64,000 nt of DNA from Tubulanus polymorphus. Taxonomy: Eukaryota; Animalia; Nemertea. The translations under genes were made by a program, and so were the position numbers. The stretch's first letter is position 1, and each line of letters begins with the position of its first letter. Under the pieces are notes generated by a model. It was given only the letters and a program-made list of their open reading frames with translations. It was not told where the DNA came from and did not search any database. The stretch covers positions 6,758,001 through 6,822,000 of the forward strand of contig NC_134031.1 in NCBI RefSeq assembly GCF_964204645.1, in the 5' to 3' direction. Positions 31,081 to 50,504 of the stretch are shown piece after piece.

Positions 31081-31968
31081 ATGAATTCAGCGTCCAGAAT
31101 TGGAAGGCCTTATTTCTCTTCAATTAGCATGAAGGGAATGGACCAAATGCCATCGAGGTTCCGGACGTTCTTCATAGCAGCTACGTTGATAATTTTCGCA
31201 TTTGGATTCTTTGGTAACGTATCGAGTTGCGTCGTAACTACGAGCAAGCGTTTCGTGTCTTTATCGTTCGCTAACTACCTGACAGCGTTGGCGATATTCG
31301 ACATGTGGTGTTTGACGGCCAGGACCTGGTTGCCCGTGATACGTTTACTTTCTAAATCATTCAAAATGTTACAAATAAAACTGTCGGATGTCGGTTGTTT
31401 GCATGAATCGACGTTTTTGATATTTAGTCGCATGAGTTCGTTATTGATCACGATCGTAGCTGTTGAGCGGTTGATGGTGGTCATGTTTCCGTTCACAGCT
31501 CGATTTATATGTAAACCGAAGTTCGCACGATTAGTAATGTCGATAGCGTTCGTTTTAGCTTTTGCATCTTCTATTCCACAAGGAATGTTATTTCTACGAT
31601 ATTCAACAGAAAACAGCTGTCATTATTCTAGCGTAGAACACCAACGTTACATTTTCAACGCTGTGATTCCGAGCCAGTTTTATTTGTTACTTACTTTGGT
31701 TTCCGTTTCGAATATTCTCATCATAGCTAAGCTTTATCGACAAAAAGATTTCGGTTCCGGCAGATCTAAAGCGGCCAAAAACAGACAAACGAATATCATG
31801 TTAGTTACCGTCACAGTAGTTTCCATTGTTACGACACTTCCGTCTACATTTACCGTAATGATAAAACTTCCGGTTGCCTTGAACTATAAATCAATAGCAA
31901 TTTCGTGGCTATTTTTGAATTTTAACTACAGCATAAACTTTTACATTTACATTATGCTTGGGAAATAG
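31081..31968 (+). CDS. Single-exon rhodopsin-like (class A) GPCR; TAG stop falls within the expected helix 8
   Basis: GN in TM1, LAIFD, VER (DRY-like), NFYIY in TM7; seven hydrophobic segments. Confidence 0.88.
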   Translation: MNSASRIGRPYFSSISMKGMDQMPSRFRTFFIAATLIIFAFGFFGNVSSCVVTTSKRFVSLSFANYLTALAIFDMWCLTARTWLPVIRLLSKSFKMLQIKLSDVGCLHESTFLIFSRMSSLLITIVAVERLMVVMFPFTARFICKPKFARLVMSIAFVLAFASSIPQGMLFLRYSTENSCHYSSVEHQRYIFNAVIPSQFYLLLTLVSVSNILIIAKLYRQKDFGSGRSKAAKNRQTNIMLVTVTVVSIVTTLPSTFTVMIKLPVALNYKSIAISWLFLNFNYSINFYIYIMLGK

Positions 31969-32219
31969 TTTCGAACGACATTTTTTCATTTTTTCAAAAC
32001 TTCATGATTCACAAGACGTTCACATCCAAAACCGATGTGTTACGGTACGAAATTGCACAGGGTAACCATTCTGAATATTGTTTTCACTCGCAAATTAGAA
32101 TGGACCGGGAAAATCCCCGAGTGGACAATAAATATCTAAGGATATAACAGTCTAACAGCTAAATCAACTGCACCAATATGCTGCCAGATTGAGTTGTGCT
32201 CAATAGCAAATAATGTAGC

Positions 32220-32622
32220 AGTAATAGGGGTTTAGTTGTTTCATACCAAAGGTCGAAAGGTCGAGCCCGAGAAATTTTCCAAAATGTTAAAATAACAACA
32301 ATTTCTACTTGAATTAGTCGCGTACACTCCTAATTCAAGTAGAAATTATTATTATTTTAACATTTGGAAAATTTATCAACCTCAACCTTTCAACCTTTGA
32401 TATGAAACAACTAAACCCCTATTACTCTTAAAATATTCATATATATATGAATAAAATATAAATCATTGAACTTCTAAAATCAATTTTAATAAAAAATATA
32501 GTATTAAAATGGAAGCAAATAAGTACTACTGCCCAACATGTAATATCGATATAGATAAATCCCAAAAAGCAAGACACAATAAAACTAAAACACATTTAGA
32601 AAATAAATTGAAACTAGAATAT
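32220..32622 (+). repeat. Left TIR (403 bp); first 207 nt form an internal hairpin; includes the first 38 codons of pPolB
   Basis: Reverse complement of 49984-50386; the only mismatch I noticed is at 32614. Confidence 0.95.
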
Positions 32623-35600
32623 GAAGATGATATATTAGAAAATAAATTAGAAGAATTAAAGGATGAAAAAGAAACATACAAATGTGATACATGTAATCAA
32701 TCATTCAGTGATAAAAGATATTATAAAGAACATTTAAAATCTATAAGTCATATTAGAAATAAGAATAATGATATTTTAGGTGAAGATTATTTTGATAATG
32801 ATAACGATAAGAAACAGAAGACAATTAAAAGAATAAAAAATAAATTAAACAATAAAAGACCATACATGGAAGATGTAAGAAATTATATTAATTCATTAGA
32901 TAATAAAAAAGATATAGAGATAACCGAAGCATTTAAAAGTGATATTGGTCCAGCAGCTATCGAGTTTAAATTTCATAAAGGTAAAACATTAGAAGAAAAT
33001 AAAAAACATTTAGAAAATATGAAAGAAATAATAAAAATAATTACAAACGTAGAATACCCAAAAATTAGTATATCAGTTAAAGTAAAGTTTATAAAATCTG
33101 AAGATAAACCAATATATAATATAAATTCTCATTCACAACATATTATATCTAAACAACATATAGATGATAAATTAGATAAATGTTATAATGAAATAAAAAC
33201 TAAAATAGAAGAGAAATATTTTGAAGGATCTGGTTTAATATTTGATGAGATAATATTTATAACTTTACATGTTTATAACACAAAATATAATAAGTTAACT
33301 AAATCAAAACCAATTGATGAAAATAATTTATCATATTATAAAGATGATAGTATAAATGGAACAAGTTATATTAAACTACCATTTAAAACTAATGGTGTAA
33401 TAAATATACAAAATGAAGATGATAAATGTTTTCTATGGGCTATAATAAGTTGTTTACATCCAACAGAAGATATTACACATAGTTTTAGATTAACTCATTA
33501 TAAACCATTTGAAAATAATTATAAGATAGATAAGTATCCTGTTAGAATTAAAAACATCCCAAAAATAGAAAGAGATAATAATATAAAGATAAATGTATTT
33601 GATTTAATCAAATTACCAAATACAAAAGGAAATAATATTAAACATTATACATTAGAACCTTTATACCTATCAAAAGATTATGATTCAAATGATGTTATAG
33701 ATATACTATATTATGAGAATCATTACATGTGGATTAAACAAATCGATTTATTTTTTAAATCAGAAAATGATTTTGATAATAAAATATATCTATGTAGAAA
33801 ATGTTTACATAAATTCAGAACTGAAGGTGCATTATTAAATCATAAACAACTATGTGATAATCATGATTATTGTAAATTAGTTTTACCAAATGAAAAAGAT
33901 AAAATATTAGAATTCAAAAAATATGATTACAAAAATAAAGTACCATTTGTAATATATGGAGATTTTGAATCATTAAATAAAGAATTAACAGATAAAGATA
34001 GAAAAGATATATATTATAAAAGAAAGAAATTAAATTCTAATGAAAATGATTATTCAGATGAACCACCAATAACAAATACTATTAAAAAGATTCATCAATC
34101 AGCTGCAGCTTTCGGGTTATATATTCAATCTGATTATCCAGAACTAATTGAAAGTGAATATTATGATTATAGAAATGAAAATGTTATAAATCATTTTTGT
34201 GACTTATTAATTGAATATGAAATAAGATTTAGTAAATTATTGAATACAAATATAGAAATTATAATGACAGAAGAAGATAAAGAAGGATTTGAGTTTGCAG
34301 ATAAATGTTATTATTGTAATCAAGTATTCTATTCATCTGATAAAAAAGTAAGAGACCATGATCATTTGAATGGAAAGTTTAGAGGCGCTGCGCATGAGAA
34401 TTGTAACTTACAAGCTAAGAAAATTAACTTTGTACCAGTTATATTTCATAATCTATCAGGATATGATGCACATTTATTTATCAAACAGTTATGTCATAAA
34501 ATAGAAGAAATCAATAATGAAATAGAAATATTAAATTCAAATAGATCAAAAGATAAAATACCAACTTATAAATTTAGAATGTTAGCTAAAACATCTGAGA
34601 ATTATATATCTTTCCAATTTGGATGCTTAAGATTTATAGATTCATATAGATTTTTAAATAGTTCATTAGATAACTTATCAAAATCATTAGTTGATGATGA
34701 ATTAAAGATATTAAAAGAATATTACCCAAATAATGATGATTTTCAATTAATGAGATATAAAGGCGCAATTCCATATTCATTTTATAAATCACATAATGAT
34801 TTCAATATAACTGAATTATTGAAAGAACAATTCTATGATGAATTAAAAAATGAATATGTTAAAGATGAAGTCTATAATAGAACATTAAATATTTGGAATC
34901 ATTTCAAAATAGAAAATCATGGGCAATTAGTAGATTTATATTTAAAATCAGATGTATTATTATTAACCGATATATTCGAAAGGTTTAGAGATGTAAACCT
35001 AAAATATTTTAACATTGATCCTTGTCATTGTTATTCATCACCAGGTTTAACATGGGATTGTGGATTAAAATTTACAGATATAAAAATGGATTTGTTAACA
35101 AATATAGATCAATTACTATTATTTGAAAAATCTATAAGAGGAGGTGTTTCAGGTGTATTGGGTGATAGATATTTCAATGTAAATGATAATCCTGGATATA
35201 AATTATTATACATAGATGCAAATAATCTTTATGGTTGGGCAATGATGGAACCACAACCTTATGGGATGTTTGAAATAACTGAAGTTTTACAAATTGATAA
35301 ATTTGATTGGAAGAAAAGAATTCTAGATATTGCAGATGATTCAGATACTGGTTACTTCTTTGTTGTAGACTTGGAATATCCTGAACATATTAAATTTAAA
35401 TCTAGAAATCTAGCATACTGCCCAGAACATAAAACTGTAACTCATGAAGAATTATCAAATTATCAAAAAAGAATTAAACCCGATAATCATATTCATACTG
35501 AAAAGTTAATGGTAACTCAAGAAGATAAATATAATTATGTAGTGCATTATAGAATGTTGAAGTTTTATTTGAGACAAGGAATGATATTAAAAAAAGTACA

Positions 35601-36540
35601 TAGATATATTTCATTCAGTCAATCTAAATGGTTAGAAAAATATATAGATTTTAATACTACACAGAGAACTGAAGCTAAAACTGATTTCGAGAAAGATTTC
35701 TTCAAACTAATGAATAATGCATTCTATGGTAAGACTTGTGAAAACATAAGAAATAGAAATGATATTGAGTTAGTTAGTAATGGTAAAAGGATAAGGCATT
35801 TACAATCATATCCTAAGTTTATAGGTAACAGAATATTTGATGAAAATTTAGCAGCAGTTAAAATGAGGAGAACTTCTATGAAGTTCAATAAACCTATTTA
35901 TGTTGGTGCATCGGTTTTAGAATTATCAAAGTTATTAATGTATAAATTTTACTATAACATATTACAACCTCATTTTGGAGAAAAACACATAGAAATTCTA
36001 TACTTTGATACCGACAGTTACATATTAAAGATAAAAACTGATAACATAACAGATGATTTAAAAACATTAAAACACCATTTTGATTTTAGTAACTATCCTA
36101 AAGATCATGAATTGTTTAGCAATGATAATAAAAAAGTTCCTGGGAAGTTTAAGGATGAATTAGGTGGTGAAGAAATGATAGAGTTCATCGGTATTAGATC
36201 TAAAATGTATTCATATAAAACTAAAACTCATGAAGCTAAAAAGTTAAAAGGAATTACCAAAAGCGTTGTTGAAAAGAATATTCATTTTAAAGATTACATC
36301 AATTGTATATTTAATGAAGAAGTTAGAAAACATAAGATGAAATGTTTAAGATCTGAAGATCATGAAATGTATATTGAAGAGATAGAGAAGATAAGTTTGA
36401 ATCCATTTGATGATAAAAGATATATTTTAGATGATGGAATCCACACAGTCGCCTATGGCTGCAATTTAGATGAATATATAAAATTCAAAAGAGAAGAAAC
36501 AAAAGAAAATGAGATTATGAAAAGGATTCTAACGTGTTAA
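32509..36540 (+). CDS. polB: Protein-primed family B DNA polymerase with N-terminal zinc fingers and an endonuclease VII-like insert
   Basis: YGDFES, FHNLSGYDAH (exonuclease), DHDHLNGKFRGAAHENCN, YIDANNLYG, KLMNNAFYGK, YFDTDS. Confidence 0.96.
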   Translation: MEANKYYCPTCNIDIDKSQKARHNKTKTHLENKLKLEYEDDILENKLEELKDEKETYKCDTCNQSFSDKRYYKEHLKSISHIRNKNNDILGEDYFDNDNDKKQKTIKRIKNKLNNKRPYMEDVRNYINSLDNKKDIEITEAFKSDIGPAAIEFKFHKGKTLEENKKHLENMKEIIKIITNVEYPKISISVKVKFIKSEDKPIYNINSHSQHIISKQHIDDKLDKCYNEIKTKIEEKYFEGSGLIFDEIIFITLHVYNTKYNKLTKSKPIDENNLSYYKDDSINGTSYIKLPFKTNGVINIQNEDDKCFLWAIISCLHPTEDITHSFRLTHYKPFENNYKIDKYPVRIKNIPKIERDNNIKINVFDLIKLPNTKGNNIKHYTLEPLYLSKDYDSNDVIDILYYENHYMWIKQIDLFFKSENDFDNKIYLCRKCLHKFRTEGALLNHKQLCDNHDYCKLVLPNEKDKILEFKKYDYKNKVPFVIYGDFESLNKELTDKDRKDIYYKRKKLNSNENDYSDEPPITNTIKKIHQSAAAFGLYIQSDYPELIESEYYDYRNENVINHFCDLLIEYEIRFSKLLNTNIEIIMTEEDKEGFEFADKCYYCNQVFYSSDKKVRDHDHLNGKFRGAAHENCNLQAKKINFVPVIFHNLSGYDAHLFIKQLCHKIEEINNEIEILNSNRSKDKIPTYKFRMLAKTSENYISFQFGCLRFIDSYRFLNSSLDNLSKSLVDDELKILKEYYPNNDDFQLMRYKGAIPYSFYKSHNDFNITELLKEQFYDELKNEYVKDEVYNRTLNIWNHFKIENHGQLVDLYLKSDVLLLTDIFERFRDVNLKYFNIDPCHCYSSPGLTWDCGLKFTDIKMDLLTNIDQLLLFEKSIRGGVSGVLGDRYFNVNDNPGYKLLYIDANNLYGWAMMEPQPYGMFEITEVLQIDKFDWKKRILDIADDSDTGYFFVVDLEYPEHIKFKSRNLAYCPEHKTVTHEELSNYQKRIKPDNHIHTEKLMVTQEDKYNYVVHYRMLKFYLRQGMILKKVHRYISFSQSKWLEKYIDFNTTQRTEAKTDFEKDFFKLMNNAFYGKTCENIRNRNDIELVSNGKRIRHLQSYPKFIGNRIFDENLAAVKMRRTSMKFNKPIYVGASVLELSKLLMYKFYYNILQPHFGEKHIEILYFDTDSYILKIKTDNITDDLKTLKHHFDFSNYPKDHELFSNDNKKVPGKFKDELGGEEMIEFIGIRSKMYSYKTKTHEAKKLKGITKSVVEKNIHFKDYINCIFNEEVRKHKMKCLRSEDHEMYIEEIEKISLNPFDDKRYILDDGIHTVAYGCNLDEYIKFKREETKENEIMKRILTC

Positions 36541-36568
36541 TCAATTTCAATAAAAATTTGTATAATAA

Positions 36569-36910
36569 ATGGAGAGTAAACAAGTACACAGTGAATTCTT
36601 AGATAGAATTAAAGATACTTCAAGCGTCAAATCTGTAGATTATAAATTTAAAAAACTAACTGAGTTAACAATTCACAAGAAATATTTAATTACTAACATT
36701 GAAACAATTACTAATAAATATGGAGATAAATTAGTTATACACTTAGAATATGAAGGATTAAAAGGAAATACATATAAATTCAGAACATATTTACCTGATA
36801 GATTTCATAGATTATCAAGTGAAGATTTAGAAGAATTATGTTCTGGAGATTTCTATTTCATATATAAAGGTAAGAATGAAAAAGGGCACCACGATATTGA
36901 TTTTGAATGA
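36569..36910 (+). CDS. Small hypothetical protein, possibly an OB-fold ssDNA-binding protein
   Basis: Intact ORF directly after polB; beta-rich pattern (KYGDKLVIHL, TYLPDRF). Function inferred. Confidence 0.6.
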   Translation: MESKQVHSEFLDRIKDTSSVKSVDYKFKKLTELTIHKKYLITNIETITNKYGDKLVIHLEYEGLKGNTYKFRTYLPDRFHRLSSEDLEELCSGDFYFIYKGKNEKGHHDIDFE

Positions 36911-36925
36911 AAATATGTAAAATAA

Positions 36926-37681
36926 ATGGTGGAATTAAAAGAATACAGAATATTTGTTGATTCTAGAAAACTTACAAATTATAAATCACATAATTTACTA
37001 GTTCAATTAGATAGAGAATTTAAGAATTGTGTTGATTTAAAATTAGTTAATATAAGTTTATGTAATTCTTTTTACAATGTATCGGATAAAACTTTTGAAC
37101 ATAGAGGGTTTATGATTTATATGAGAAATAAAGATAAATGGTTTCATATATTTTTAAAACCAGGATTATATAATTTAGAATCATTAGCGCAGGAAATTAA
37201 TAGAAGAGCTCGGTTGAAAATCGGGGGCACTTCTGTATTTGAAATTAAGTTTAATAAAATTGATAGTACTAATAAAATAAGAATAAAGATATCTAATGAA
37301 CAACATAAATTTATGGTAAACAAACCACTGGCTAAAATGTTAGGAATTAAACCGCTTACAGTTACTGGAAACGCAGAAGGCAGCTCAAATATAATACCTT
37401 TTACACACTTTTATATTTATTGCAATTTAATCGAGCCTACAAAAACTTTCGAAGCAACTAAAGAAACAATTTGTAGTTCTAGTATACTAAATATTTTACC
37501 GCTAAAAAATGTTAAACAATTTGGAACTCAAATAAATTATAATTTAACAGAATGTGATTTTAAACCATGCATTCCTAAATTTAATAATTTTAAATTAGAA
37601 ATAAGAAATCATAATGGATACTTAATTGATTTAAATAACTTTCCTGTAATTTATGAATTAGTTATAAGATGTAAAGAGTAA
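36926..37681 (+). CDS. Minor capsid (penton) protein, single jelly roll
   Basis: Polinton penton-like motifs IFVDS, PGLYNLESLAQEIN, YIYCNLIE, ILNILP, LEIRNHNGYLIDLNN. Confidence 0.75.
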   Translation: MVELKEYRIFVDSRKLTNYKSHNLLVQLDREFKNCVDLKLVNISLCNSFYNVSDKTFEHRGFMIYMRNKDKWFHIFLKPGLYNLESLAQEINRRARLKIGGTSVFEIKFNKIDSTNKIRIKISNEQHKFMVNKPLAKMLGIKPLTVTGNAEGSSNIIPFTHFYIYCNLIEPTKTFEATKETICSSSILNILPLKNVKQFGTQINYNLTECDFKPCIPKFNNFKLEIRNHNGYLIDLNNFPVIYELVIRCKE

Positions 37682-37697
37682 TTTTTTTGATATATAA

Positions 37698-38057
37698 ATG
37701 AATATAACTGTTGGACCGAGTATATGTTTTGGATTTGATTTTAAACGTGAGAAAGAAATGAAATTTAACATTAATGATGTAATAACACATATCAAAAATA
37801 TTACATTTTCTAATGAAACAACATTTGAGTATGAAACAACAATAGATAAAGAAACTTTAAATGTAGAAAAGATTACTAATTTAATTAGAGAATCTTTAAG
37901 ATTTTATGAATTAGATGAAGATTTTATCATCGATGATATTAAAAAAATAATAATTGAAATATATGATAATCATAAAACTAGTAATGAAATAAATGTTGAA
38001 ATAATCATCACTAAGTTAACTAAATATTTTGATGATAGTAATTTTTTTGATAAATAA
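37698..38057 (+). CDS. Hypothetical acidic protein
   Basis: Intact ORF in the element's gene array with a T7-N6-TAAATG start. Confidence 0.65.
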   Translation: MNITVGPSICFGFDFKREKEMKFNINDVITHIKNITFSNETTFEYETTIDKETLNVEKITNLIRESLRFYELDEDFIIDDIKKIIIEIYDNHKTSNEINVEIIITKLTKYFDDSNFFDK

Positions 38058-38279
38058 ATGAGTGATAATAAGTGGATAATAACTGGATTATATAATGGCG
38101 CATTACTATCAGTTGGAACTGTTGGTTATTCAATGGTATTAAAAAAAGTATTCAAAATGGGAAGTGTTAATGTTGATAGATTTGATATAAATGATATTCT
38201 AAAATTAACATTAGCAGTTACTTTATCTAATTTAACTATTGATTATTTGGAAAAACAAAAATATATTCCTCCTATATAA
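38058..38279 (+). CDS. Small predicted membrane protein
   Basis: Two hydrophobic segments; T7-N6-TAAATG start. Confidence 0.7.
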   Translation: MSDNKWIITGLYNGALLSVGTVGYSMVLKKVFKMGSVNVDRFDINDILKLTLAVTLSNLTIDYLEKQKYIPPI

Positions 38280-38303
38280 ATACATAATTTTTTTGCTAAA
38301 TAA

Positions 38304-38729
38304 ATGGCTTCTGCAATTATAACTATTATAGGATCGGCAATTGTTAACGCTTTAGCATTTACTGGTGGTGGTTATATATTTAAACATATTGATAAAAATA
38401 GTTCATTAGGAGAACAAAGAAGACATAACTTAGCGTTAGAGAAATACAATAAAGCTGCAGAAGAATATAGAGAAAAGAGGCAAAACTATATGGATTACAT
38501 CAATAAAGAATTATATGATCAGAAGATTTCACATAGAGATTTTCAATCAGTTGATGATGCAATGAGTTTATATAACGCAGTAACAAATAAAGAAAAATTA
38601 CATCTATACAAACCTAAATTATCAGATTATTATACCCCAAGTAAAGAACAACAGAAATATGAAATAATTTGGATTTTAGGTGGAACTGTTATTGTTATAT
38701 TTGTTGCTTATAAGTTTACTAATGAGTAA
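38304..38729 (+). CDS. Predicted membrane protein (N-terminal hydrophobic/Gly segment, helical core, C-terminal TM)
   Basis: MASAIITIIGSAIVNALAFTGGG ... IIWILGGTVIVIFVAY. Confidence 0.75.
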   Translation: MASAIITIIGSAIVNALAFTGGGYIFKHIDKNSSLGEQRRHNLALEKYNKAAEEYREKRQNYMDYINKELYDQKISHRDFQSVDDAMSLYNAVTNKEKLHLYKPKLSDYYTPSKEQQKYEIIWILGGTVIVIFVAYKFTNE

Positions 38730-38747
38730 TTTTTTTTTGCTAAATAA

Positions 38748-39182
38748 ATGGAAGATAAAGTTGATAGTATTGATATTATTCCTCATGATATAAATAAAAC
38801 TAAATTAAAAACATATTTAGAAAAACAAATATTAGAATTTGAAAGTGACTTAAAAGTTAAAAAGAAAAAATATCTAAAAAGTAAAATTATATATTATTTG
38901 ATTATAAGTGGTTCGGTTACAATTAGTTCTGTAATAACATTTTTAGCAATATTCAGCCCATTAACACCTTTAGCTATATCAATTGGTGTGTTAGGATTAA
39001 GTTCAAGTGTTTTAACTGGTATAAGTTCAAAATTAAATATAAAAAGTAATAAAGTAAAAATTAAAACTAATATAAAAGAAATTAATAAATTAAAGAATAC
39101 ACTAGATTATATAATAAGTTTAAATGGTCATATAACAGTTGAAGAACAAGATAAATTATTAAAAGAATTAATAAATTATTAA
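38748..39182 (+). CDS. Two-TM protein flanked by coiled coils
   Basis: IIYYLIISGSVTISSVITFLAIF and LAISIGVLGLSSSVLTGI. Confidence 0.75.
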   Translation: MEDKVDSIDIIPHDINKTKLKTYLEKQILEFESDLKVKKKKYLKSKIIYYLIISGSVTISSVITFLAIFSPLTPLAISIGVLGLSSSVLTGISSKLNIKSNKVKIKTNIKEINKLKNTLDYIISLNGHITVEEQDKLLKELINY

Positions 39183-39199
39183 TTTTTTTAATTATATAA

Positions 39200-40588
39200 A
39201 TGGTAGATAGTTTTCCAAAAGCTTTCCGATATAATAAATCAATTAAATATAATATTCCAGCAATAGATTTTAATAAAGATATTACATATAGAAATGAAGT
39301 TTTAGATTCATTAATTGATTTATATATTTATGTTACTGAAACTAATAATTTTAATGCAAAGATGGAAAATATATTTCATGTATATTTAATTAATTTTAAA
39401 AAATTGAAAGATGAAAAACAATGGTTATTAAAATCTAATATGAAGTATTGGCAGAATCAATTAAATTTTGCTGTTTATTGTGCAACAACAGGTTGTGGAA
39501 TTAGTTGGAATGATCATTTGAATAATTCTAAATATAAACTAATTCAAAGTTTATTTAGATTTCATACATACTTTCAAATCAGAATAATATTAAATGAATT
39601 AGAGTGCGCTTTACCAGGATCTAGGTATTTTAAAGAATTAGATAATAATATTAATTTATCAAAGTTTTATAAAATTTGTAATGAATTTAATATAGATATA
39701 AATAATTCTGATTTTAGAACAAAAATTGGAACAATAAGATCACTTCCTTGCCCTAAAAAGATTGCAGAATATTGCGCACTTCCCATACCATCTAATAGCT
39801 TTTATAATATCTATAATAATAAATTAGGTTATGGTAAAATTGAAACAAAGGATTTAGAAACATTAAATTTCAATAAATTACCGAAATTTTATGATAATTT
39901 AAAACAAGAAAACAATAATGGTTGGGTTTATTTTATTTTAGAAAATAGTGAAGGTTTTACTAAATCAGGTATACAAAGAATAAATCAATCTATTAGAACT
40001 TATTTGATATGTATTTTAGGTGCGCAAGTTGAAACAAGATCACCAATAATTGGAAATTTGAATACATCATTTGATACACAAAAACAATTTAAAGTTTTAT
40101 TTGAAGATTCAATTCATAATGATAAAAATAGATCGATTCCAGAAAACATTATAAGATATCAAAATTATTTAGATAAATCTCATGTAAGACTTAATTATTG
40201 TATAGGCCCTAATCTATTAATTATTTCTAATGATTTAGTATTGAAGATGGGAAATATAATTGGTTATAATAATCTAATTAAAACTGCAACAATAAATAAT
40301 TCATTTGGATTAAATGATATAAATAAAAAGATTATTACTGCTCCAAAATTAATGGAGGGTGAAAAAAATAAAAAACACATTCAATCAACAGAAACTAAAA
40401 CTAATAATATTAAATTGGTTAATGATTCTAAAATAAAAGATTACAATACATCAGAAAATATTAAAACTGATAAAATTCAACATGATATAATTAAACTAAA
40501 TGATGATAATAAATCCCATGAAAATACTAAATTAGCTATAACTTGTATAGGAATTGTAATCGGAGGAATATTATATTTTAAATTTTAA
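39200..40588 (+). CDS. Uncharacterised 462-aa protein with a C-terminal TM anchor
   Basis: Long intact ORF; terminal LAITCIGIVIGGILYF. Confidence 0.8.
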   Translation: MVDSFPKAFRYNKSIKYNIPAIDFNKDITYRNEVLDSLIDLYIYVTETNNFNAKMENIFHVYLINFKKLKDEKQWLLKSNMKYWQNQLNFAVYCATTGCGISWNDHLNNSKYKLIQSLFRFHTYFQIRIILNELECALPGSRYFKELDNNINLSKFYKICNEFNIDINNSDFRTKIGTIRSLPCPKKIAEYCALPIPSNSFYNIYNNKLGYGKIETKDLETLNFNKLPKFYDNLKQENNNGWVYFILENSEGFTKSGIQRINQSIRTYLICILGAQVETRSPIIGNLNTSFDTQKQFKVLFEDSIHNDKNRSIPENIIRYQNYLDKSHVRLNYCIGPNLLIISNDLVLKMGNIIGYNNLIKTATINNSFGLNDINKKIITAPKLMEGEKNKKHIQSTETKTNNIKLVNDSKIKDYNTSENIKTDKIQHDIIKLNDDNKSHENTKLAITCIGIVIGGILYFKF

Positions 40589-40604
40589 TTTTTTTATTAT
40601 GTAA

Positions 40605-42074
40605 ATGGAAGTAGAAGGTGGAGAAGATTATGAAATGGGAGAAATGGGAAATAATAATGAAGGATATATTGATGATGAACCACAACCAGATTTTAATGAA
40701 ACTAATATTGATAATGATGATGAATCAGCATATAATTCTAATTTAGCAGATAGTGGTTCTAAAGGTCAATCAACAGATGAATTTGATAGAAGAACTAGAT
40801 CGAGAATAAATCCTGAAAATGAAAATCCAGATTTAGTAAAACAAAATTTAGAATATAATGAATATATTTATAATTTCAAACCTATATTTGAAAAATCTGG
40901 ATATAATATCAATGCTAGAGGCGCCAGACTTTTAGTACAAGAATTAAAATCTTTAGATGGTGAATATTATTATCATTTGAAAGATGATTATTATATTGAT
41001 ATCTCTTATAAAAAACAAAACAAAATATTAGCAGAATCAACTTTGCTTAAGTCTGACTCATTACTATCTAGAATTAAAAGAATAAGAAATAGTAATGAAA
41101 TAGAAGATGTAACACAAGAAGAAATTATTAAAAATGAAAGAGTATTTAAACAAAGAATTAATGAATTATTTGAAACAATCGATAATAATTTAGAAACAGA
41201 AACAACTTCTGAACAGAATATAACTTCCAAAACTAGTAAACTTAAATCAAATAAAGTTCCAATTGAAAAACTTTTACCGAATGGGTTACTTGATGCAACA
41301 GATCAAGAATTAGAAGATTTAGATATATTTTCTGATAAAGCAATTAGAGAAATTATTAGTATAAGACTTGCATCTGATAAAATTTCGCATGATAAAAGTA
41401 TAAGAGATTTTAAAATTAGAACTTTAGAAAAAGAATTAACTGATAAAAATAAAGAAATAGAACAACTAAAATTAGATAGAGATAATAAAGTTATTGAAGA
41501 AATTGAATTTAAAAAAAGAAATGCATATTTAGAAAAAGAAATTGATGATTTAGAATATAACATAGAATTACAAAAAGAAGAAATTAAATTATTATTAAAA
41601 TCATATGATTATAATATTAATAGATTAAAAGTTATTTTTAAAGATTTGTTGATTAAACCAAATTCTGAAATATCATTAAAAGACAGAATAAAGTTATTAT
41701 TTAAATTAGAAGGAATAACAATTCTTTCAATTCTAACAGCTGTAACTATGTTATTTACAACAATTGGTTTAGCAATATCAAATGCTTTGAAATCTACTCC
41801 TACTCCAAATAAACCAGATAAACCTCCAGGTAATAATTCTATACAAGATAAAGTAAAGGATGGTTTAAAGAAATTAGCAAAATATTTATGGGAACTATCA
41901 AAGAAATCTGCTGCAGCATTGCCAGGAGTTATTGCTTCAATTGTTGGTTTTATATTGAAATCTGCAGGAAACATTATTAACTTTGCTGCTGAACATATTA
42001 TTTTATTTTTAATTACAGTTGTAAGTGCTATTATTTTTGGTTTAGTAAATATGATATCAAAAAATATCAAGTAA
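40605..42074 (+). CDS. Acidic N-terminus, long coiled coil and multi-TM C-terminus (489 aa)
   Basis: Heptad-rich middle region; about three hydrophobic segments at the C-terminus. Confidence 0.8.
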   Translation: MEVEGGEDYEMGEMGNNNEGYIDDEPQPDFNETNIDNDDESAYNSNLADSGSKGQSTDEFDRRTRSRINPENENPDLVKQNLEYNEYIYNFKPIFEKSGYNINARGARLLVQELKSLDGEYYYHLKDDYYIDISYKKQNKILAESTLLKSDSLLSRIKRIRNSNEIEDVTQEEIIKNERVFKQRINELFETIDNNLETETTSEQNITSKTSKLKSNKVPIEKLLPNGLLDATDQELEDLDIFSDKAIREIISIRLASDKISHDKSIRDFKIRTLEKELTDKNKEIEQLKLDRDNKVIEEIEFKKRNAYLEKEIDDLEYNIELQKEEIKLLLKSYDYNINRLKVIFKDLLIKPNSEISLKDRIKLLFKLEGITILSILTAVTMLFTTIGLAISNALKSTPTPNKPDKPPGNNSIQDKVKDGLKKLAKYLWELSKKSAAALPGVIASIVGFILKSAGNIINFAAEHIILFLITVVSAIIFGLVNMISKNIK

Positions 42075-42115
42075 ACCATGATAAAAAATAAATAATTAAT
42101 TTTTTTGTTAAATAA

Positions 42116-43363
42116 ATGAGTGGGAGTTATATAAGTCCTTCGAAGATTTCTAGAATATCTAATGCTATTAAAGCAGAAAGATCACATCATATAATTACTC
42201 ATAACCCTTCAAATATTAATCCCGATGAAACTTTATATGTTAGAATCCCTCGATTAACACAAAATACTTTTTATGTTCCAAATAGTATTTATTTATCAGC
42301 CGATATAAAAGTAATCGGTAATAATAATAATTATGTTGTCGATAATGTTGGAAGATATTTGATTAAAAAATTAATAATAAAGATTGGACCAGAAACAGTT
42401 TTCTCATTAGATGATTATAATTTATTTATGCATTATAAAGATTTATGGTTAACTAAAGAAAATAGAAATAATATGATATTTCAAGGAATTCAATCAGAAA
42501 ACCAAAATAAATTAAGATCAGAAGCTAATAGCGCAATATTAACTAATGATGTAGATAAATTGATAAAAAGTATATATGGAAGCAAATATAAAATTCCATT
42601 AGACTTTGAATTGATAAATAATAATGCACCTTTATATAAATACGCAATTCAAGAAGATATTATATTTGAGATAACATTTGCTCCTGTAAATGAAATCGTA
42701 ATATCTAGCGTTAATAAAGATATGAGTTATAAATTATCGAATATATGTTTAGAATATGATACAGTAACTGATGAAAATATTTCAAGTATAATTCAAACTC
42801 AATACAATCAAGGATTTTCATTATTATATGATTATATTGATAAATTTAAAACTGTAACTATTAATGCAAATGATGAAATAATTAATGAGAATATTAACTT
42901 CCCTAGAAGATCTATTAAAGGTATATTAATATTTTTTACCATTGGAACGTATACTAATGGCGCAATAAATGTTGATAATTATTATAATCCTGAAATAACA
43001 AAAGTAGAAATAACTATCGAAGGAATAGCAAATAAAATATTTTGTCAAGGAATGAGAATGATTGATCAATGGGTAGAAATTAAAAAACATTTTATGAATG
43101 AAAAAGTAAAATCATTTGAAAATTGTAACATTAATCAAATTGATTATTATACCGGTAATAAATATGCATTATGGTTAGATTTTAGAACAACTGAGGATAA
43201 TTCATTACATGGTTCTGGAAAAAAACTACAAAATACAAAAGATGGAATACAATTATTCATGACAAAGAAAAAGGGAATCAAAAATTTTAAAATGCATATT
43301 TATATTATATCTGACGCACAATTAAATATTGTAAATTCACAATTAGATAGTGTTATGTATTAA
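42116..43363 (+). CDS. Probable major capsid protein (double jelly roll)
   Basis: 415 aa, beta-strand-rich alternating pattern, size and context typical of Polinton MCPs; not confirmed by profile search. Confidence 0.75.
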   Translation: MSGSYISPSKISRISNAIKAERSHHIITHNPSNINPDETLYVRIPRLTQNTFYVPNSIYLSADIKVIGNNNNYVVDNVGRYLIKKLIIKIGPETVFSLDDYNLFMHYKDLWLTKENRNNMIFQGIQSENQNKLRSEANSAILTNDVDKLIKSIYGSKYKIPLDFELINNNAPLYKYAIQEDIIFEITFAPVNEIVISSVNKDMSYKLSNICLEYDTVTDENISSIIQTQYNQGFSLLYDYIDKFKTVTINANDEIINENINFPRRSIKGILIFFTIGTYTNGAINVDNYYNPEITKVEITIEGIANKIFCQGMRMIDQWVEIKKHFMNEKVKSFENCNINQIDYYTGNKYALWLDFRTTEDNSLHGSGKKLQNTKDGIQLFMTKKKGIKNFKMHIYIISDAQLNIVNSQLDSVMY

Positions 43364-43395
43364 AATTTTAACTTTAATAAAAAATCTTATATTAA

Positions 43396-44468
43396 ATGGA
43401 AGGTGGAATATATGAAATACAAACTCCAAGTGAAATGATATCAGATATATATTATATATTACCTTATGATGAATACAGTAAGTATTTTGGAGATTACTTT
43501 AATCAATTCAAATATAGAATAAGTAAAATAGATAAGAATATTGAAACAAAAATAGTGATAATATTGAACCTAAAATAGAAGATAATATTGAACCTAAAAT
43601 AGAAGATAAGAATGATATTGAATATAAAATAGAAGATAATATTGAATCTAAAATAGAAGATAATGTTATACCTTCTACATCGAATTATGATAAGATTGAA
43701 CCTGATATCAAAACCAAAAAGATAAATGAAAAATCAAATGTTCAACCAAAAGATAACATCAGATGTATGTATTGTGAAGAAGATTTTGATAATTATAATG
43801 ATTATTTATTACACATCAAAAAAGATGAACATATTTTACAATTAGTAAAAACATATGCCAATATATATAAAGATAAATGCAAAGAGGATCAGAATTATTG
43901 TGCCTTCTGTAATGAATGTATAACAAAGGCTAATTGGGCAAAACATTATAAATTAAAAACAAAAGGTGGAAATGATTCAGCCCATGCAATACAAGTATTT
44001 AAATCTTGGTGTGAAAAATGTAAAGAATATGTAATATATGATAAACAATTGAATCATAAATACTCAATTAAACATATTGGTACAGATAATGTAATAGAAA
44101 ATCCAACAGTTATAAATCCAAAATTTAATAATAAGAATATATTAGATTATCGGTGGTATAGAAAAACATTTATAGATTATTTATTGAGTAATGATATAGT
44201 TACCATATTGAAAAAGTTAGATAACTTTAAACCAAATGTAACTTATGCAATGAACTTATTTGAACTTAAATATGATGATTTTAGAGAATTTTTAAATAAA
44301 CATTCATCTAAAACTGAAATCGAAAATTATATTCCAAAAATATTTTCAAGAAAAACATTCAATAAATATAAACTCGAGAATCATTTAGGACCTATACCAA
44401 TGAAAATGCAAAGGAATTTATGGTTAGAATACAATAAGCTTAAAGAAAAATATGAAAATGAAAATTAA
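43396..44468 (+). pseudogene. Zinc-finger protein with KIEDNIEP repeats, split by a 1-nt frameshift at ~43556
   Basis: One repeat unit reads aaaatagtgataat versus aaaatagaagataat elsewhere; the shifted frame is open through RCMYC...H...H into the 43767 ORF. Confidence 0.75.
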
Positions 44469-44855
44469 AAATATTATAGAATTCACTGTATATTGATGGA
44501 TGAATGGATGAGTTGGAAGAGTTGGATGAGTTGGATGAGTGGAAGAGTGGATGAGTATAATAATATATATATTTTACTTTTTAACACATAAATTGGAAGA
44601 ATAGTATGAGTATAAATATAATATTTATATTCTTTATTAAATTTAACACAATATATATATATTATTAAAATAATATTTAAATATAGTATAAAATTGATAA
44701 AATAACTTCAAATCAAACTCTTACTGTTTTAAAAATAAAAAACATATGTAAATTATATATTATTACACTCATCCATTCATCCACTCATCCAATTCATCCA
44801 ATTCATCCAATTCATCCACTCATCCATTAGTATACAGTGAATTCTATAATATTTT
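44468..44855. repeat. Long inverted repeat (~105-bp arms containing TGGATGAG/A units) between the convergent gene blocks
   Basis: aaaatattatagaattcactgtata at the left and tatacagtgaattctataatatttt at the right. Confidence 0.85.
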
Positions 44856-44866
44856 GAATTAGGATT

Positions 44867-45478
44867 TTATTTTATAAATTTATATTCATATGGAAATTGT
44901 AATCTCATAAGTAATTTGGAACCTTTATTATTCTTTAATTTATTCATATATTCATCATGTAATTCAGGAGGTATAATTTGATTTTCTTCCAATGATTGTT
45001 GCATAGATTTTTTATCTTTGTTATAAAATAAAACTAGAAATCTTATATTCTCTCTAAAATCTTTCACAATTGAATTATATTTCTGATTTAAAACCCATGT
45101 TGTTATCCCAAAATGTCTACCAGAGAAAGCTAAATAACATAACTCACTTTCTCTAATTTTAGAATCATGTAAATTTGCGCAATCATCAATAATAAATAAT
45201 GTATTTGATCCTTTATAAGTATCAATTGCTATTTTAATACAATTATCTAAATTTTCTTTTACTGTTTTAGAATCTAATATAATAAACTTTTTTATCTTAA
45301 CTATATCTCTATTATATGTTTTATTCATTTCATAAGTTGGGCAGAATAATATTATATTATCGAAATGATTCTGATAAATAGTTTCTAATAAATCTAATAT
45401 GAAGTGTGTTTTACCACAATTTGTAACTCCAGTTATTAACATATTATGTGGTTCAAATATAAACAAATCTTTATTCAT
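44867..45478 (-). CDS. A32/FtsK-like DNA packaging ATPase
   Basis: Walker A GVTNCGKT, Walker B FIIDD, arginine finger GRH, downstream NQ sensor. Confidence 0.92.
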   Translation of the reverse strand: MNKDLFIFEPHNMLITGVTNCGKTHFILDLLETIYQNHFDNIILFCPTYEMNKTYNRDIVKIKKFIILDSKTVKENLDNCIKIAIDTYKGSNTLFIIDDCANLHDSKIRESELCYLAFSGRHFGITTWVLNQKYNSIVKDFRENIRFLVLFYNKDKKSMQQSLEENQIIPPELHDEYMNKLKNNKGSKLLMRLQFPYEYKFIK

Positions 45479-46559
45479 TTATTCTTTTAATTTTACTAGA
45501 TAAAATCCATTCATTAAATTTATCATCATATCCTTTATATTTCACCAAAGAATACTTTTTTCCTTTAAGAGTTTTTGTTTTCAATACTTTTTCTATTTTG
45601 TATTCTATTTCATCTGGATTTGGTACAAGTGATAATTCTTGTTCATAGAAATAACCTAATATTTCTTCATCTTTTAGATCTTCTAATTTATAAACAAATG
45701 GTTTAGTTAATATTATCTTTTTAATTTTAAATATTTCTTCAGTAAAATTAGGGGTATAACCTTTATAAAATGTTTTTCGATATTTAGAAATTCTAACATG
45801 TTGTCCTATTTTAAATTTAGGTTCTCCAAAATCATGTGTAACAAATGCTCCATATAAATTATTCCAAACTATTTCTGAATTTTCTTCTTTTCTAGCTTGT
45901 ATAGGTTTCATATTTATAGAACTATGTTTAGAATTATTATAACCTTTAACTAAATCATCTAACACATCGATATATTTATATGTTTCATTAGCGGTGAAAT
46001 ATTTCCACATTCTAGTTTTCAATGTTTTATTAAATCTTTCTATAACAGATGCTTTTTTATCTGAATGTGTTGAAAAATATTCTACATCGTTATCAGATAA
46101 TAGTTTTTTGAAATGTTTGTTATAAAATTCTTTACCTTCATCAAATTGTATTTTATCTGGAATAGCTTCTTTAAATATTAATTTGAAAGAATTTGTAACT
46201 TCTATACCAGTTTTATTTTTAATCGGGATACTCCATGCGTATCTACTGAATATATCTATAACATTTAGTATCCAAAAATATCCTTTGTTGTATTCTTCTA
46301 AGTTTTTCATGTCAATTAAATCTGCTTGCCATTGTTGATCAATATATGAAACCATTACTTTTCTTGTTAAATATTTTTTATCCATCTTTTTATGAATTTG
46401 ATATGTGGGTTGATTTTGTAACCATGATTTTAATTCACTATATTTTATTTTTTCTTTATCAGATTTAATTTTATCCCATAATTCTGAAACACTTGAATAT
46501 GAAACTTCACTTTCTGGGTTATAATATAAATCTCTTAAATATTGTTCTTTTTTCATCAT
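45471..46559 (-). CDS. Retroviral-like DDE integrase with C-terminal chromodomain
   Basis: WQADLIDM, IDIFSRYAW, FDEGKEF, ERFNKTLK; chromodomain YKIEKVL...VKYKGYDDKFNEW. Confidence 0.95.
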   Translation of the reverse strand: MMKKEQYLRDLYYNPESEVSYSSVSELWDKIKSDKEKIKYSELKSWLQNQPTYQIHKKMDKKYLTRKVMVSYIDQQWQADLIDMKNLEEYNKGYFWILNVIDIFSRYAWSIPIKNKTGIEVTNSFKLIFKEAIPDKIQFDEGKEFYNKHFKKLLSDNDVEYFSTHSDKKASVIERFNKTLKTRMWKYFTANETYKYIDVLDDLVKGYNNSKHSSINMKPIQARKEENSEIVWNNLYGAFVTHDFGEPKFKIGQHVRISKYRKTFYKGYTPNFTEEIFKIKKIILTKPFVYKLEDLKDEEILGYFYEQELSLVPNPDEIEYKIEKVLKTKTLKGKKYSLVKYKGYDDKFNEWILSSKIKRINE

Positions 46560-46562
46560 ATT

Positions 46563-46946
46563 TTAATCCATTAATAATATTTTAGATTTATTTTCATTTG
46601 ACTTATTTTCTGGTATGATAGGTTTATTGTCATTGGAATCATCTTTATCGTAAGATTTGAATTTTGATTTATATATTACACCGGATAATATAATAACTGT
46701 TACTAATCCAATTGTAATATATAATTTATAATTACTTCCAACATTATAAGAATTAGATGGATTATTATTTGAATCAATACCACCGTGTGGGTGCTGTACG
46801 GCACCATCAGATAAAGTCTGTGATTCATTTATATCAGTTAATTTCTTTTTCTTAGCTTTTTTTAATTCTGAAGATCTTTTACCTAATTCTCTTGCCCATT
46901 TAATTTGTTTATCGGATCTAGCCTTTTTCTTAACTCCATCACTCAT
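46563..46946 (-). CDS. Basic N-terminal, single-TM protein
   Basis: Lys/Arg-rich start; LYITIGLVTVIILSGVIY; TAAATG start overlapping the upstream ORF. Confidence 0.7.
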   Translation of the reverse strand: MSDGVKKKARSDKQIKWARELGKRSSELKKAKKKKLTDINESQTLSDGAVQHPHGGIDSNNNPSNSYNVGSNYKLYITIGLVTVIILSGVIYKSKFKSYDKDDSNDNKPIIPENKSNENKSKILLMD

Positions 46947-47547
46947 TTATTTTAGTTAATTTTTGTTCTGATTCATTTTCTGTTTCGACGTTTGGTTGTA
47001 GTACAGCGTCATCTGTTTCGTTCTTACCTGATTTATATTCCATAGGTTTGATGTTCGAAAATGTAATGACACCAGTAGAAATCAATGTCATAACCGATCC
47101 TAATTGAAATGAAGCATAACCGACCCATTTTTGTAATTCAGTCATAACTAAATAGTCATTTTTCAAATCATTATATAATTTATTTTCATCATCAATTGGT
47201 ATTAACTGGTTACATAATTTTGAATAACATTTGACAATACCATCTGAAACAGAATCATTTATTCTAGCTAATCGAGCTTCTTCATAAATCTTAAAATATT
47301 TTATTACTTTATCGGGTTTCATAGCATCTAATTCTTGAAAAGTAATGATTCTATTTAAAAACTCATTAGTTTTTCCACCGGCAATCAATAGTTCTATATG
47401 GTGCTTACAATATAAATTGTATTCATAATCTATATTGTTATTAACTTGAATAGAATTAGAAACAACTGTATCTTTATTATCACTAATACCTAAATCATCT
47501 AATGTATTTTCAATATCAATACTATTCTTATTAGATTTCTTTGACAT
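46939..47547 (-). CDS. Hypothetical protein with a C-proximal hydrophobic segment
   Basis: Intact 202-aa ORF; T-run then TAAATG start. Confidence 0.7.
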   Translation of the reverse strand: MSKKSNKNSIDIENTLDDLGISDNKDTVVSNSIQVNNNIDYEYNLYCKHHIELLIAGGKTNEFLNRIITFQELDAMKPDKVIKYFKIYEEARLARINDSVSDGIVKCYSKLCNQLIPIDDENKLYNDLKNDYLVMTELQKWVGYASFQLGSVMTLISTGVITFSNIKPMEYKSGKNETDDAVLQPNVETENESEQKLTKINE

Positions 47548-47967
47548 TTATATTAGAGTAAAAAAGCAAAAAAAATATTATAAGTATTCTTCAAATGATA
47601 CTAGTATCTCTTTAGGTTAATACTAAATTGATTAGGTTAGTTAAAGTTAAAGAATTTCTATTCAAATCTATTCAAAATCTATTCAATCTAATGTCAATTA
47701 GAATTACCAAAAGAAAATATTAAAAATATAACAGAATTCACTAGCTAGTTGAAGTTATTGTTTTTTTATTATATTTTATTTAAATTAGGATTTAGATTAT
47801 CTCACTACTATTGTCTATCTATTAGGAGCAGTAATTATAACTGTCCAGATAAGTCATTTCGGATCCTCGATATCAAATCCTCAACTGAAAATAAATTCAA
47901 AGAAACGACTGGTGGAATTACTATTTCATAAACACATATATTTATTATGTAAATTTTAGCGATCGAT

Positions 47968-48220
47968 AATAGAACAATGGAGAACAATAGAAATGCGGTC
48001 CAATCGGACCGGTTATTGCGCAATACACGGTTATATTTTTATTCTAACAACGATCAATAATAGAACAATGGAGAACAATAGAAATGCGGTCCAATCGGAC
48101 CGGTTATTGCGCAATACTTAGTTAACAGTAAACAATCAATACAGAACAATGGAGAACAATAGAAATGCGGTCCAATCGGACCGGTTATTGCGCAATACTT
48201 AGTTAACAGTAAACAATACA
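47968..48220. repeat. Three direct repeats of a ~57-bp core containing two palindromes
   Basis: agaacaatggagaacaatagaaatgcGGTCCaatcGGACCggtTATTGCGCAATAc at 47971, 48062 and 48143. Confidence 0.9.
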
Positions 48221-48285
48221 ATATTAAAACAGATATATACAACATTTTTTGATATCTATATTACAAAGACCTTCAGTGTTATAAT

Positions 48286-49101: not shown

Positions 49102-49767
49102 CTAACCACTGATCAAAACCTCAGAATGCGGTTGATTCTGTGAAATACTATTCCATAATTCAACAAATGTCTTTGCTTTATCCAGTTGATCTAAATATAA
49201 CTGTATATCTAGTTTATTAGATTTAATTATGTTTTCTTTCTTTTCAAGAGGCCTTAAATTTCCCCAACCCCAAATAAGTTTTTTATTGTATTCATCATTC
49301 ATGTTAAATTTAGAAATCGGCAACACATGATCAATATGAAAGTATTCACCGTAATTATCTATATTCATTTTATCATCGAATTGATATATAATCCATGATT
49401 TGAGAAATTCACCTGAACAACCCAATAAATTAGATAATGTTTCTGAATGTGTTTCTTTGTTGAATAATTGTGTTAATCTAGATCTTAAACACTGTTTCAA
49501 TCTAAAATTAAGATCTGTTTGATATCTTTCTCTCATATATTCTGCCATATAATAATTATAATGTTCTATATTATCTTCTCGGTATTGTTTGGTGTATAGT
49601 TTAAAACAAGTTTTACAGCAATATTGAAAACCATCTTTGCTAATCTTACGCTTACTAAATTCTGTTAATGATTTATCTAATTCACATTTAGAACACTTCT
49701 TGTAGTATATGTTTATAACGCCAGTGTTATTTGTAATATTTATAGTTTGTGGTTGTTCTGGTTCCAT
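49102..49767 (-). CDS. HNH endonuclease with N-terminal Cys4 zinc-binding motif (type common in large DNA viruses and phages)
   Basis: CSKC...CKTC; HIDHVLP...WGNLRPLEKKENIIK. Confidence 0.85.
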   Translation of the reverse strand: MEPEQPQTINITNNTGVINIYYKKCSKCELDKSLTEFSKRKISKDGFQYCCKTCFKLYTKQYREDNIEHYNYYMAEYMRERYQTDLNFRLKQCLRSRLTQLFNKETHSETLSNLLGCSGEFLKSWIIYQFDDKMNIDNYGEYFHIDHVLPISKFNMNDEYNKKLIWGWGNLRPLEKKENIIKSNKLDIQLYLDQLDKAKTFVELWNSISQNQPHSEVLISG

Positions 49768-49845
49768 TTATTATATGTATTTTTTACTAAATTGGTTAAT
49801 AATTTTAGAATCCTCTTCCATTTCTTCGACCAACATCATCCTTTT

Positions 49846-50097
49846 TCATTCTTCGTTGCTTTTGATAAGTTGTTTCGATTCCTTGATATCAAATTCCTCA
49901 ACGTATTGTTCATTATTTGGATCATTATTCCATAATTCAATAAATTTCTTTGCTTTTGTTAAATGTTCTGAATATAACTGTAAATATTCTAATTTCAATT
50001 TATTTTCTAAATGTGTTTTAGTTTTATTGTGTCTTGCTTTTTGGGATTTATCTATATCGATATTACATGTTGGGCAGTAGTACTTATTTGCTTCCAT
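49846..50097 (-). CDS. Chimeric ORF: pPolB N-terminal zinc finger (from the TIR) fused to an HNH-like C-terminal tail
   Basis: First 38 aa identical to pPolB; LQLYSEHLTKAKKFIELWN resembles IQLYLDQLDKAKTFVELWN of the neighbouring HNH. Confidence 0.7.
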   Translation of the reverse strand: MEANKYYCPTCNIDIDKSQKARHNKTKTHLENKLKLEYLQLYSEHLTKAKKFIELWNNDPNNEQYVEEFDIKESKQLIKSNEE

Positions 50098-50386
50098 TTT
50101 AATACTATATTTTTTATTAAAATTGATTTTAGAAGTTCAATGATTTATATTTTATTCATATATATATGAATATTTTAAGAGTAATAGGGGTTTAGTTGTT
50201 TCATATCAAAGGTTGAAAGGTTGAGGTTGATAAATTTTCCAAATGTTAAAATAATAATAATTTCTACTTGAATTAGGAGTGTACGCGACTAATTCAAGTA
50301 GAAATTGTTGTTATTTTAACATTTTGGAAAATTTCTCGGGCTCGACCTTTCGACCTTTGGTATGAAACAACTAAACCCCTATTACT
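49984..50386 (-). repeat. Right TIR (403 bp)
   Basis: Inverted copy of 32220-32622. Confidence 0.95.
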
Positions 50387-50504
50387 TGTAGCAAATCTTT
50401 TTACTACTTGTTGAAGACCATGTTTCTCCCCACATGAGATTGAAACGCCTGTGCAAAATATACACTGAGCTTATGTCGACTCATACCTTTTTTAGTTTTA
50501 ACGA

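Follow-up and report, generated by a model that had tools for sequence, protein, structure and literature searches.

The 64,000-nt stretch analysed here (the window), from contig NC_134031.1 of the nemertean Tubulanus polymorphus, consists of host DNA with GPCR, Ro60 and LINE pieces around an AT-rich insert of 18,167 nt (32220-50386; ~20-30% GC against ~37% GC in the host). This insert is an intact Maverick/Polinton provirus (table 1). Its TIRs have AGT..ACT (AG..CT) ends and are identical to each other over their first 394 nt, and the same 6-bp TSD, TGTAGC, stands on both sides. The model of its DJR major capsid protein (pLDDT 93.7) matches PBCV-1/mavirus MCP. Neither Pfam nor PHROG gave a match naming a minor capsid protein or a maturation protease among the ORFs scanned, and the designation of 36926-37681 as a minor capsid candidate is only a guess.

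Table 1. Features of the Maverick insert and its borders, in positions of the window.
Feature	Position	Strand	Remarks
TSD, left, 6 bp	32214..32219	+	TGTAGC
Left TIR, 403 nt	32220..32622	+	contains the hairpin and the pPolB gene start
Outer arm, 98 nt	32220-32317	+	C-type letters; proposed working terminus; first 26 bp mismatch-free
Loop, 12 nt	32318-32329	+	
Inner arm, 97 nt	32330-32426	+	T-type letters; inverted copy of the terminus, ending in a second ...CT end
Protein-primed DNA polymerase B (pPolB), 1343 aa	32509..36540	+	domain layout in the text
Predicted terminal-protein domain, aa ~136-256	32914..33276	+	Ser241 in the loop between second helix and last strand
Major capsid protein region	42116..43363	+	PBCV-1, iridovirus and mavirus MCP fold matches, E to 3.5e-17
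A32-type packaging ATPase	44867..45478	-	Pox_A32, E 1.6e-12
rve integrase with chromodomain	45471..46559	-	PF00665 above cut-off
Stand-alone EndoVII/HNH-like nuclease	49102..49767	-	adjoins the right TIR
Right TIR	49984..50386	-	includes the right-end hairpin
Right-end hairpin	50180-50386	-	inner arm 50180-50276, loop 50277-50288, outer arm 50289-50386
TSD, right, 6 bp	50387..50392	+	TGTAGC

Several other features of the window were recorded. The right TIR includes the pPolB start and so yields an 83-aa ORF (49846-50097, minus strand) that has the first zinc finger in common with the polymerase and then continues in unrelated sequence. An internal inverted repeat with 115-nt arms (44455-44569 / 44754-44868; 88%, 184-nt spacer), made of GGATGA-type units, sits exactly where the two gene blocks converge and is a possible two-way terminator; it has no strand bias of the 3′/5′ kind seen at the termini. 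The long non-coding part of the element holds three 75-nt direct repeats (47971-48217), each with a small GC-rich palindrome. Five ORFs of a consecutive block (37683-42118) share a motif at the start codon, which it overlaps: a T-run and then TAAATG (6 matches in the window against 0.24 expected). We take it to resemble a poxvirus-type late promoter. The host DNA has a fold-back element of its own, ~135 nt long with a perfect apex (10637-10771). In run X1, a 1146-nt contig tracks the left flank (31900-32220) up to 32220 and then departs from the window sequence; it is likely an empty site, and the insertion may be polymorphic.

The polymerase is laid out as zinc fingers, terminal-protein domain, vOTU, exonuclease with an EndoVII-like insertion (aa 597-635) and polymerase motifs, and its best fold matches were adintovirus and MELD PolB. 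In the part of PMC11071308 available to us, the linking Ser/Tyr is placed between the second helix and the last strand of the terminal-protein domain, and the vOTU is named as Cys/His. Ser241 falls in that expected loop in a model of residues 1-600 (mean pLDDT 78, pTM 0.38), and Ser241, Cys307 and His405 are each found in 48 of 49 aligned homologues. Since the serine and the vOTU dyad are retained in the expected fold, protein priming is predicted to be intact and the hairpin described below to be an addition to it. As far as modelling goes, this is the protein-primed PolB with terminal-protein and vOTU domains expected of a Maverick, and the same residues tell against a loss of protein priming in this element.

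The sequence-only reading had described the start of each TIR as a hairpin of 207 nt, mirrored at the other end of the element, and all of its counts were reproduced. The two arms differ by nine substitutions, seven of which have C in the outer and T in the inner arm (32246, 32254, 32262, 32267, 32268, 32296 and 32299), and by one 1-nt indel (at 32281); the remaining two substitutions, C/G (32266) and G/T (32271), are mismatches on either strand. The terminal 16-mer was found four times in the window, as had been claimed, against 0.62 expected. We also found that the seven C/T sites form G-T pairs on the strand with its 3′ end at that terminus and C-A on the opposite one, again in agreement with that reading, and the DNA fold suggested as a check gave -84.5 kcal/mol for the 3′-end strand against -72.9 for the other. 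Both folds are far better than chance (z of about -21 and -22), none of 200 shuffles reaching the value of either strand. In the predicted fold the 3′ CT end lies flush on the inner arm, as in a parvovirus-type terminal hairpin. Duplex arms are far more stable (-118 and -108 per arm) than arm-to-arm pairing (-87 and -76), indicating that the fold needs a single-stranded state.

The mismatches have a clear polarity. Transitions affect 7 of 14 outer-arm C but 0 of 19 outer-arm G (Fisher p 0.0008; 0.019 when CpGs are left out). The C/T sites are located in repeated units, that is, GGTYGA-type units and an AAY triplet run, and the seven wobbles perhaps represent only three or four independent events for that reason; with so few events, the strand bias alone is not significant (p 0.125-0.25). 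Moreover, the G of every wobble belongs to the outer arm on the 3′ strand. Selection for wobbles would accept G in either arm, and alone it fails to explain why G is always in the outer one.

Raw reads of run X6, of which about 12 in 100 were read, allowed a look at sister copies; depth in them is a rough guide only. The pPolB start was ~105x deeper than the flank, suggesting a large Maverick family of roughly 100 copies. At 32220, 492 reads exit the element into dissimilar sequence with low agreement, as is expected from many insertion sites. Covariation between the arms, which the sequence-only reading had proposed to look for together with flip/flop isomers, was found, while an equal class of such isomers was not (see below). 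Among the 40 variant rows listed of 71 (17 in the outer arm, 22 in the inner arm and one in the loop), a complementary partner variant accompanied 11 of the 13 outer-arm rows at paired sites, transversions included (32288/32359, 32305/32342 and 32308/32339). The two rows that had no partner were both at 32258, and the other four listed outer-arm rows are mismatches of the window read as pairs. These tables give support rather than proof, since they are unphased and reads from palindromic sequence may be assigned to the incorrect arm.

Joints within single X6 reads tell of changes in length. Forty-nine reads jump from 32264 to 32385; the letters that occur most often at this joint (14 and 9 reads) give a perfect stem of 11 bp with a 10-nt loop resembling that of the window, showing that both arms were shortened together. 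At other joints (53 and 54 reads) the apex was lost. A further 395 and 338 reads depart from the window sequence on either side of the loop, and their loose ends look complementary by eye, pointing to a longer hairpin form. Other copies have a near-identical loop on top of another stem, and additional sequence at the loop is present in many copies.

The mismatches themselves are partly fixed in the family. In the same reads, C>T at 32246 appeared in just 190 of 1333 reads, positions 32254, 32392 and 32400 had no row among the 40 listed, and the pairing state at 32384 was found in 171 of 503 reads. The pairs 32296/32351 and 32299/32348 are polymorphic, with shares as expected if T:A, G-T-type and C:G states coexist, the wobble state making up at least 30% and 18%, respectively. 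The pair 32230/32416 is a counter-case, with shares (0.21 vs 0.36) that, at face value, place the wobbles on the other strand. Run X5 contained only distant fragments.

Relatives were sought among 114 pPolB loci (L006-L119) obtained by scans with the pPolB alignment. Only L032 and L115 had a long hairpin with a Maverick-type end, and L034 a partial one, a count that gives no frequency because most contigs stop before a recognisable end. L032 (78% pPolB identity) has a complete terminal hairpin of 257 nt. Its outer arm agrees with that of the window in 63 of 85 aligned columns, and 16 of the 22 columns that differ are paired in both elements (phased). The counterparts of 32246 and 32262 are again C/T mismatches. 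The L032 stem has three C/T and five non-wobble substitutions and no G/A, T/C or A/G. Its two strands fold alike (-69.4/-69.5; arms only -59.4/-59.9). In L034 (77%) the contig begins inside the hairpin and the inner arm keeps T-type units. The contig of L036 (63%) has the outer C-type motif and no inner arm, so the hairpin may be dispensable; this subterminal motif occupies the outer position in the window, L032 and L036.

In L115, which is much more distant (35%), a hairpin of 129 nt begins with AGTAGT at a GC step, ~870 nt ahead of the pPolB match; we infer this to be a true element end. Its terminal stem has one C/T; the whole fold gives -42.2 vs -33.3 and the arms only -28.3 vs -26.6, a strand difference of just 1.7 kcal/mol for the arms. 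The strand energy bias is therefore not general among relatives. Over the three elements, all 11 arm-to-arm transitions are C/T; counting non-homologous sites alone leaves 9, again all C/T (p 0.004 if they are independent). Relatives that lacked the hairpin, or had random mismatches, had been named beforehand as evidence against the sequence-only reading; L032 and L115 do not behave in this way, while the L036 contig has no inner arm.

Other candidates were rejected as hairpin ends: L102 is a tandem repeat with a short palindrome, L047, L072 and L011 are weak, and L016, L037, L024, L010, L015, L025 and L018 have palindromes with no tie to an end. L107 begins with an end-like motif, a putative end, and has no inner copy. 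In viral_contigs, direct pPolB, integrase-profile and motif scans gave no close relative, and five matches to the terminal 16-mer were taken as probable chance; PDB sequence searches gave nothing useful. Some of these loci are peculiar in other ways. L032 has a third copy of the terminal 16-mer just upstream of its pPolB gene (~950). Gene order varies among close relatives, with an EndoVII/HNH homologue directly after pPolB and a 113-aa gene before it in L032-L034. A 184-nt palindrome of L016 (4657-4840), between its integrase and pPolB genes and with end-like motifs facing inwards, is possibly a junction of ends. The Maverick pPolB contigs L107-L119 were binned into prokaryotic MAGs, evidently as eukaryotic or viral contamination.

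The data show that the palindrome is actively maintained with a fixed polarity. Selection on a single-stranded fold, as proposed from the sequence alone, stands in part: the fold is kept in sister copies and in a diverged relative, with transitions that pair on the 3′-end strand, but L032 does so with no energy bias. From this we infer a fold-back function of the hairpin. In the reading that we prefer, and to which we give an even chance, the ends of an intact, high-copy animal Maverick include the 207-nt palindrome as a conserved component, likely serving as a 3′-strand fold-back end that guards or rebuilds the terminus, replication still being predicted to be protein-primed.

Under this fold-back reading, the 3′ end would first be made single-stranded by excision, strand displacement or resection and would fold flush onto the inner arm. 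The inner arm could then act as a template that restores a frayed tip, and such copying would carry changes from arm to arm, which would explain substitutions and deletions present in both arms. Copying of this kind would also erase the mismatches it passes, and their persistence therefore needs a third assumption. The outer arm would be obliged to preserve its C-type subterminal motif for recognition by integrase or polymerase. The inner copy would meanwhile drift to A+T, and the changes retained in it would be solely those compatible with pairing on the 3′ strand (C to T, resulting in G-T). A fixed outer arm and a drifting inner copy would account for the one-way C/T polarity. Additionally, the drifted inner pseudo-end may be a poorer substrate, and cruciform extrusion may be weakened in the integrated duplex.

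A different explanation, which we consider rather unlikely, is that the palindrome is a by-product with no function: an old fold-back accident would have doubled the tip, followed by conversion between arms and by A+T drift or CpG loss in the inner copy. Deletions in both arms and changes at the apex are typical of palindrome instability, L032 lacks the strand energy bias and L036 the inner arm. All three CpGs of the outer arm are among the C/T sites and are lost in the inner arm, where no CpG is left, and CpG is depleted in the element interior (o/e 0.59). Nevertheless, host flanks are not CpG-depleted (o/e 1.31 and 1.09), and four of the seven C/T sites are not CpG, in line with the earlier remark that deamination alone is insufficient. 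Plain drift or CpG decay should affect both strands, contrary to the absence of G/A changes beside C/T in half of the outer C, and symmetric conversion should erase the mismatch sites common to the window and L032. Long palindromes are normally lost from duplex DNA; this one is nonetheless present in the family, in L032 and probably in L115. Accidental annealing was named as an alternative in the available text of a preprint on Halocafeteria elements (10.64898/2026.07.28.741278).

It is also unlikely that the folded 3′ end acts as a snap-back primer, an option named in the sequence-only reading, and starts copying of the whole genome, with a nuclease (the integrase or an EndoVII-like domain) resolving the closed end. 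The 3′-OH would indeed lie flush on a template that continues into the element, and EndoVII-like domains occur both in pPolB and as a separate gene. T4 EndoVII cuts mismatches and junctions. Its role in end processing is speculative, because many pPolB homologues carry the domain; their loci are devoid of such a hairpin where seen. The same priming model is drawn for protist virophages and PLVs in the accessible part of 10.64898/2026.07.28.741278. Here, the terminal-protein serine and the vOTU dyad are intact, and no HUH/Rep nickase turned up when 15 ORFs of the element, all but seven that are shorter or overlap others, were compared with Pfam.

Parvovirus flip/flop isomers arise from terminal resolution, and some parvovirus ends keep one form. 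Among the rows and joints listed for X6, we found no equal flip/flop class: positions 32254, 32392 and 32400 had no large variant row, no loose-end row stood at 32426 among the six largest (the smallest had 364 reads, against 492 at 32220), and none of the 15 joints listed per query linked the tip to the interior on opposite strands. Depth across 32426 falls only from ~1380 to ~1260, so flop ends and solo hairpins together would account for roughly a quarter of ends at most. Solo 207-nt mini-elements were absent from the window and not evident in these reads, a minority up to that same share being possible. No pile-up of molecule ends was listed in X6, a result that says little on free genomes. 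Together with the retained linking Ser and vOTU Cys/His, the lack of an equal flip/flop class tells against the sequence-only suggestion of a parvovirus- or poxvirus-like end in the place of protein priming.

Quite improbable, in our view, is an RNA hairpin, in which an outward transcript from a TIR promoter would run through the inner and then the outer arm along the 3′-end strand, acting as a G-U-rich source of small RNA, a decoy or a terminator. G-U pairs are cheap in RNA (-139.0 kcal/mol for the 3′-end strand vs -108.8 for the other), and the inner arm is the immediate outer neighbour of the AT-rich stretch that precedes the pPolB start. Against this, the borders of the palindrome coincide with the DNA terminus at single-base precision and present the integrase end a second time, features superfluous for a function as RNA; deletions in both arms indicate a DNA process, and Rfam gave no match for the hairpin. 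A poxvirus-type covalently closed telomere with functional mismatches, such as those that serve packaging in vaccinia according to the portion of PMC8956199 available, is hardly credible: the hairpin is imperfect, AT-rich and retains its mismatches, but each end of the integrated copy has both arms in duplex, with AG..CT ends and a 6-bp TSD, no equal flip/flop class appears among the rows listed and the protein-priming residues are intact.

The fold-back reading has to be set against known systems. Animal Mavericks/Polintons (adintoviruses) agree with our element in length (15-25 kb), ~400-nt TIRs, AG..CT ends and 6-bp TSD, as well as in pPolB, rve integrase, ATPase and DJR capsid, including a nuclease insertion in pPolB as in pPolB2 (PMC8097293, PMC8502044, 10.1101/2023.08.22.554363, as far as these texts were available). 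According to the last of these, pPolB2 carries HNH or VSR insertions; set beside the pPolB2/Beta-adintovirus group, a divergent PolB clade in which an insertion of HNH type is frequent, our pPolB has the EndoVII-like insertion and no PF03175 match of its own. Unlike in these elements, the TIR here has at its start an imperfect 207-nt palindrome, formed by the tip and its own copy. Neither hairpin nor palindrome appears in the available main texts of the three papers, and PMC11296320, in its accessible part, mentions hairpins only for poxvirus ends. Literature searches listed no publication on such ends in animal Mavericks; older descriptions or RepBase entries may note them.

The closest parallels come from protists. 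Terminal palindromes occur in Halocafeteria virophages and in PLV subtype 4, mostly elements with no pPolB, and hairpin priming was proposed for them in the available text of 10.64898/2026.07.28.741278. As here, the palindrome is inside the TIR, next to the TSD, in elements with an rve integrase, and a hairpin role is envisaged. In contrast to those elements, whose palindrome measures 52 nt in the example given and which are mostly non-pPolB and live in a protist host, the palindromes described here measure 129-257 nt and belong to an animal element and an intact pPolB with terminal protein. Changes in both arms and conserved one-way mismatches are not mentioned in the part of the preprint available, and its supplements may describe mismatches. 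The idea of a hairpin end is thus partly anticipated in print, and the palindrome is a real conserved feature and a new variant among Maverick ends.

Parvovirus/AAV and poxvirus telomeres likewise have a terminal imperfect hairpin, a flush 3′ end and retained mismatches (for poxvirus, see the accessible part of PMC8956199). The Maverick differs from them in that no equal flip/flop class was seen in the X6 reads, where a minority up to roughly a quarter is possible, no Rep/HUH or RuvC-like resolvase was found among the ORFs scanned, the terminal-protein domain is intact and the element integrates with both arms in duplex. Streptomyces telomeres appear nearer in logic, and a Streptomyces-like fold-back end is our best reading by analogy. 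In these linear, protein-primed replicons, the 3′ single strand folds back, and fold-back extension repairs truncated 3′ telomere overhangs beside protein priming (PMC5449611, as available). Streptomyces has several short palindromes, an internal origin and Tap/Tpg (available part of PMC5449611), whereas our element has one long palindrome and an integrase, and encodes a family B polymerase with fused terminal protein in the place of Tpg/Tap and an internal origin.

Our element adds an animal example, in which the machinery for protein priming is intact, to the terminal palindromes of non-pPolB elements in protists. To our knowledge, the excision, replication and end-keeping of Mavericks have never been shown, and the standard model assumes pairing of the two TIRs with each other. 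A hairpin in each TIR, with natural short and long forms and with mismatches on one strand, offers a concrete handle on the single-stranded intermediate. As a tentative and somewhat doubtful extension of the fold-back reading, the terminus could be a lopsided telomere that arose in one lineage of animal Mavericks, in which a working outer end and a disabled inner copy pair only on the 3′ strand, by conserved G-T wobbles, and are used by the terminal-protein polymerase, perhaps with the EndoVII-like nuclease, to rebuild the ends. If this is true, a single eukaryotic virus that integrates would combine priming by protein with upkeep of its ends by fold-back.
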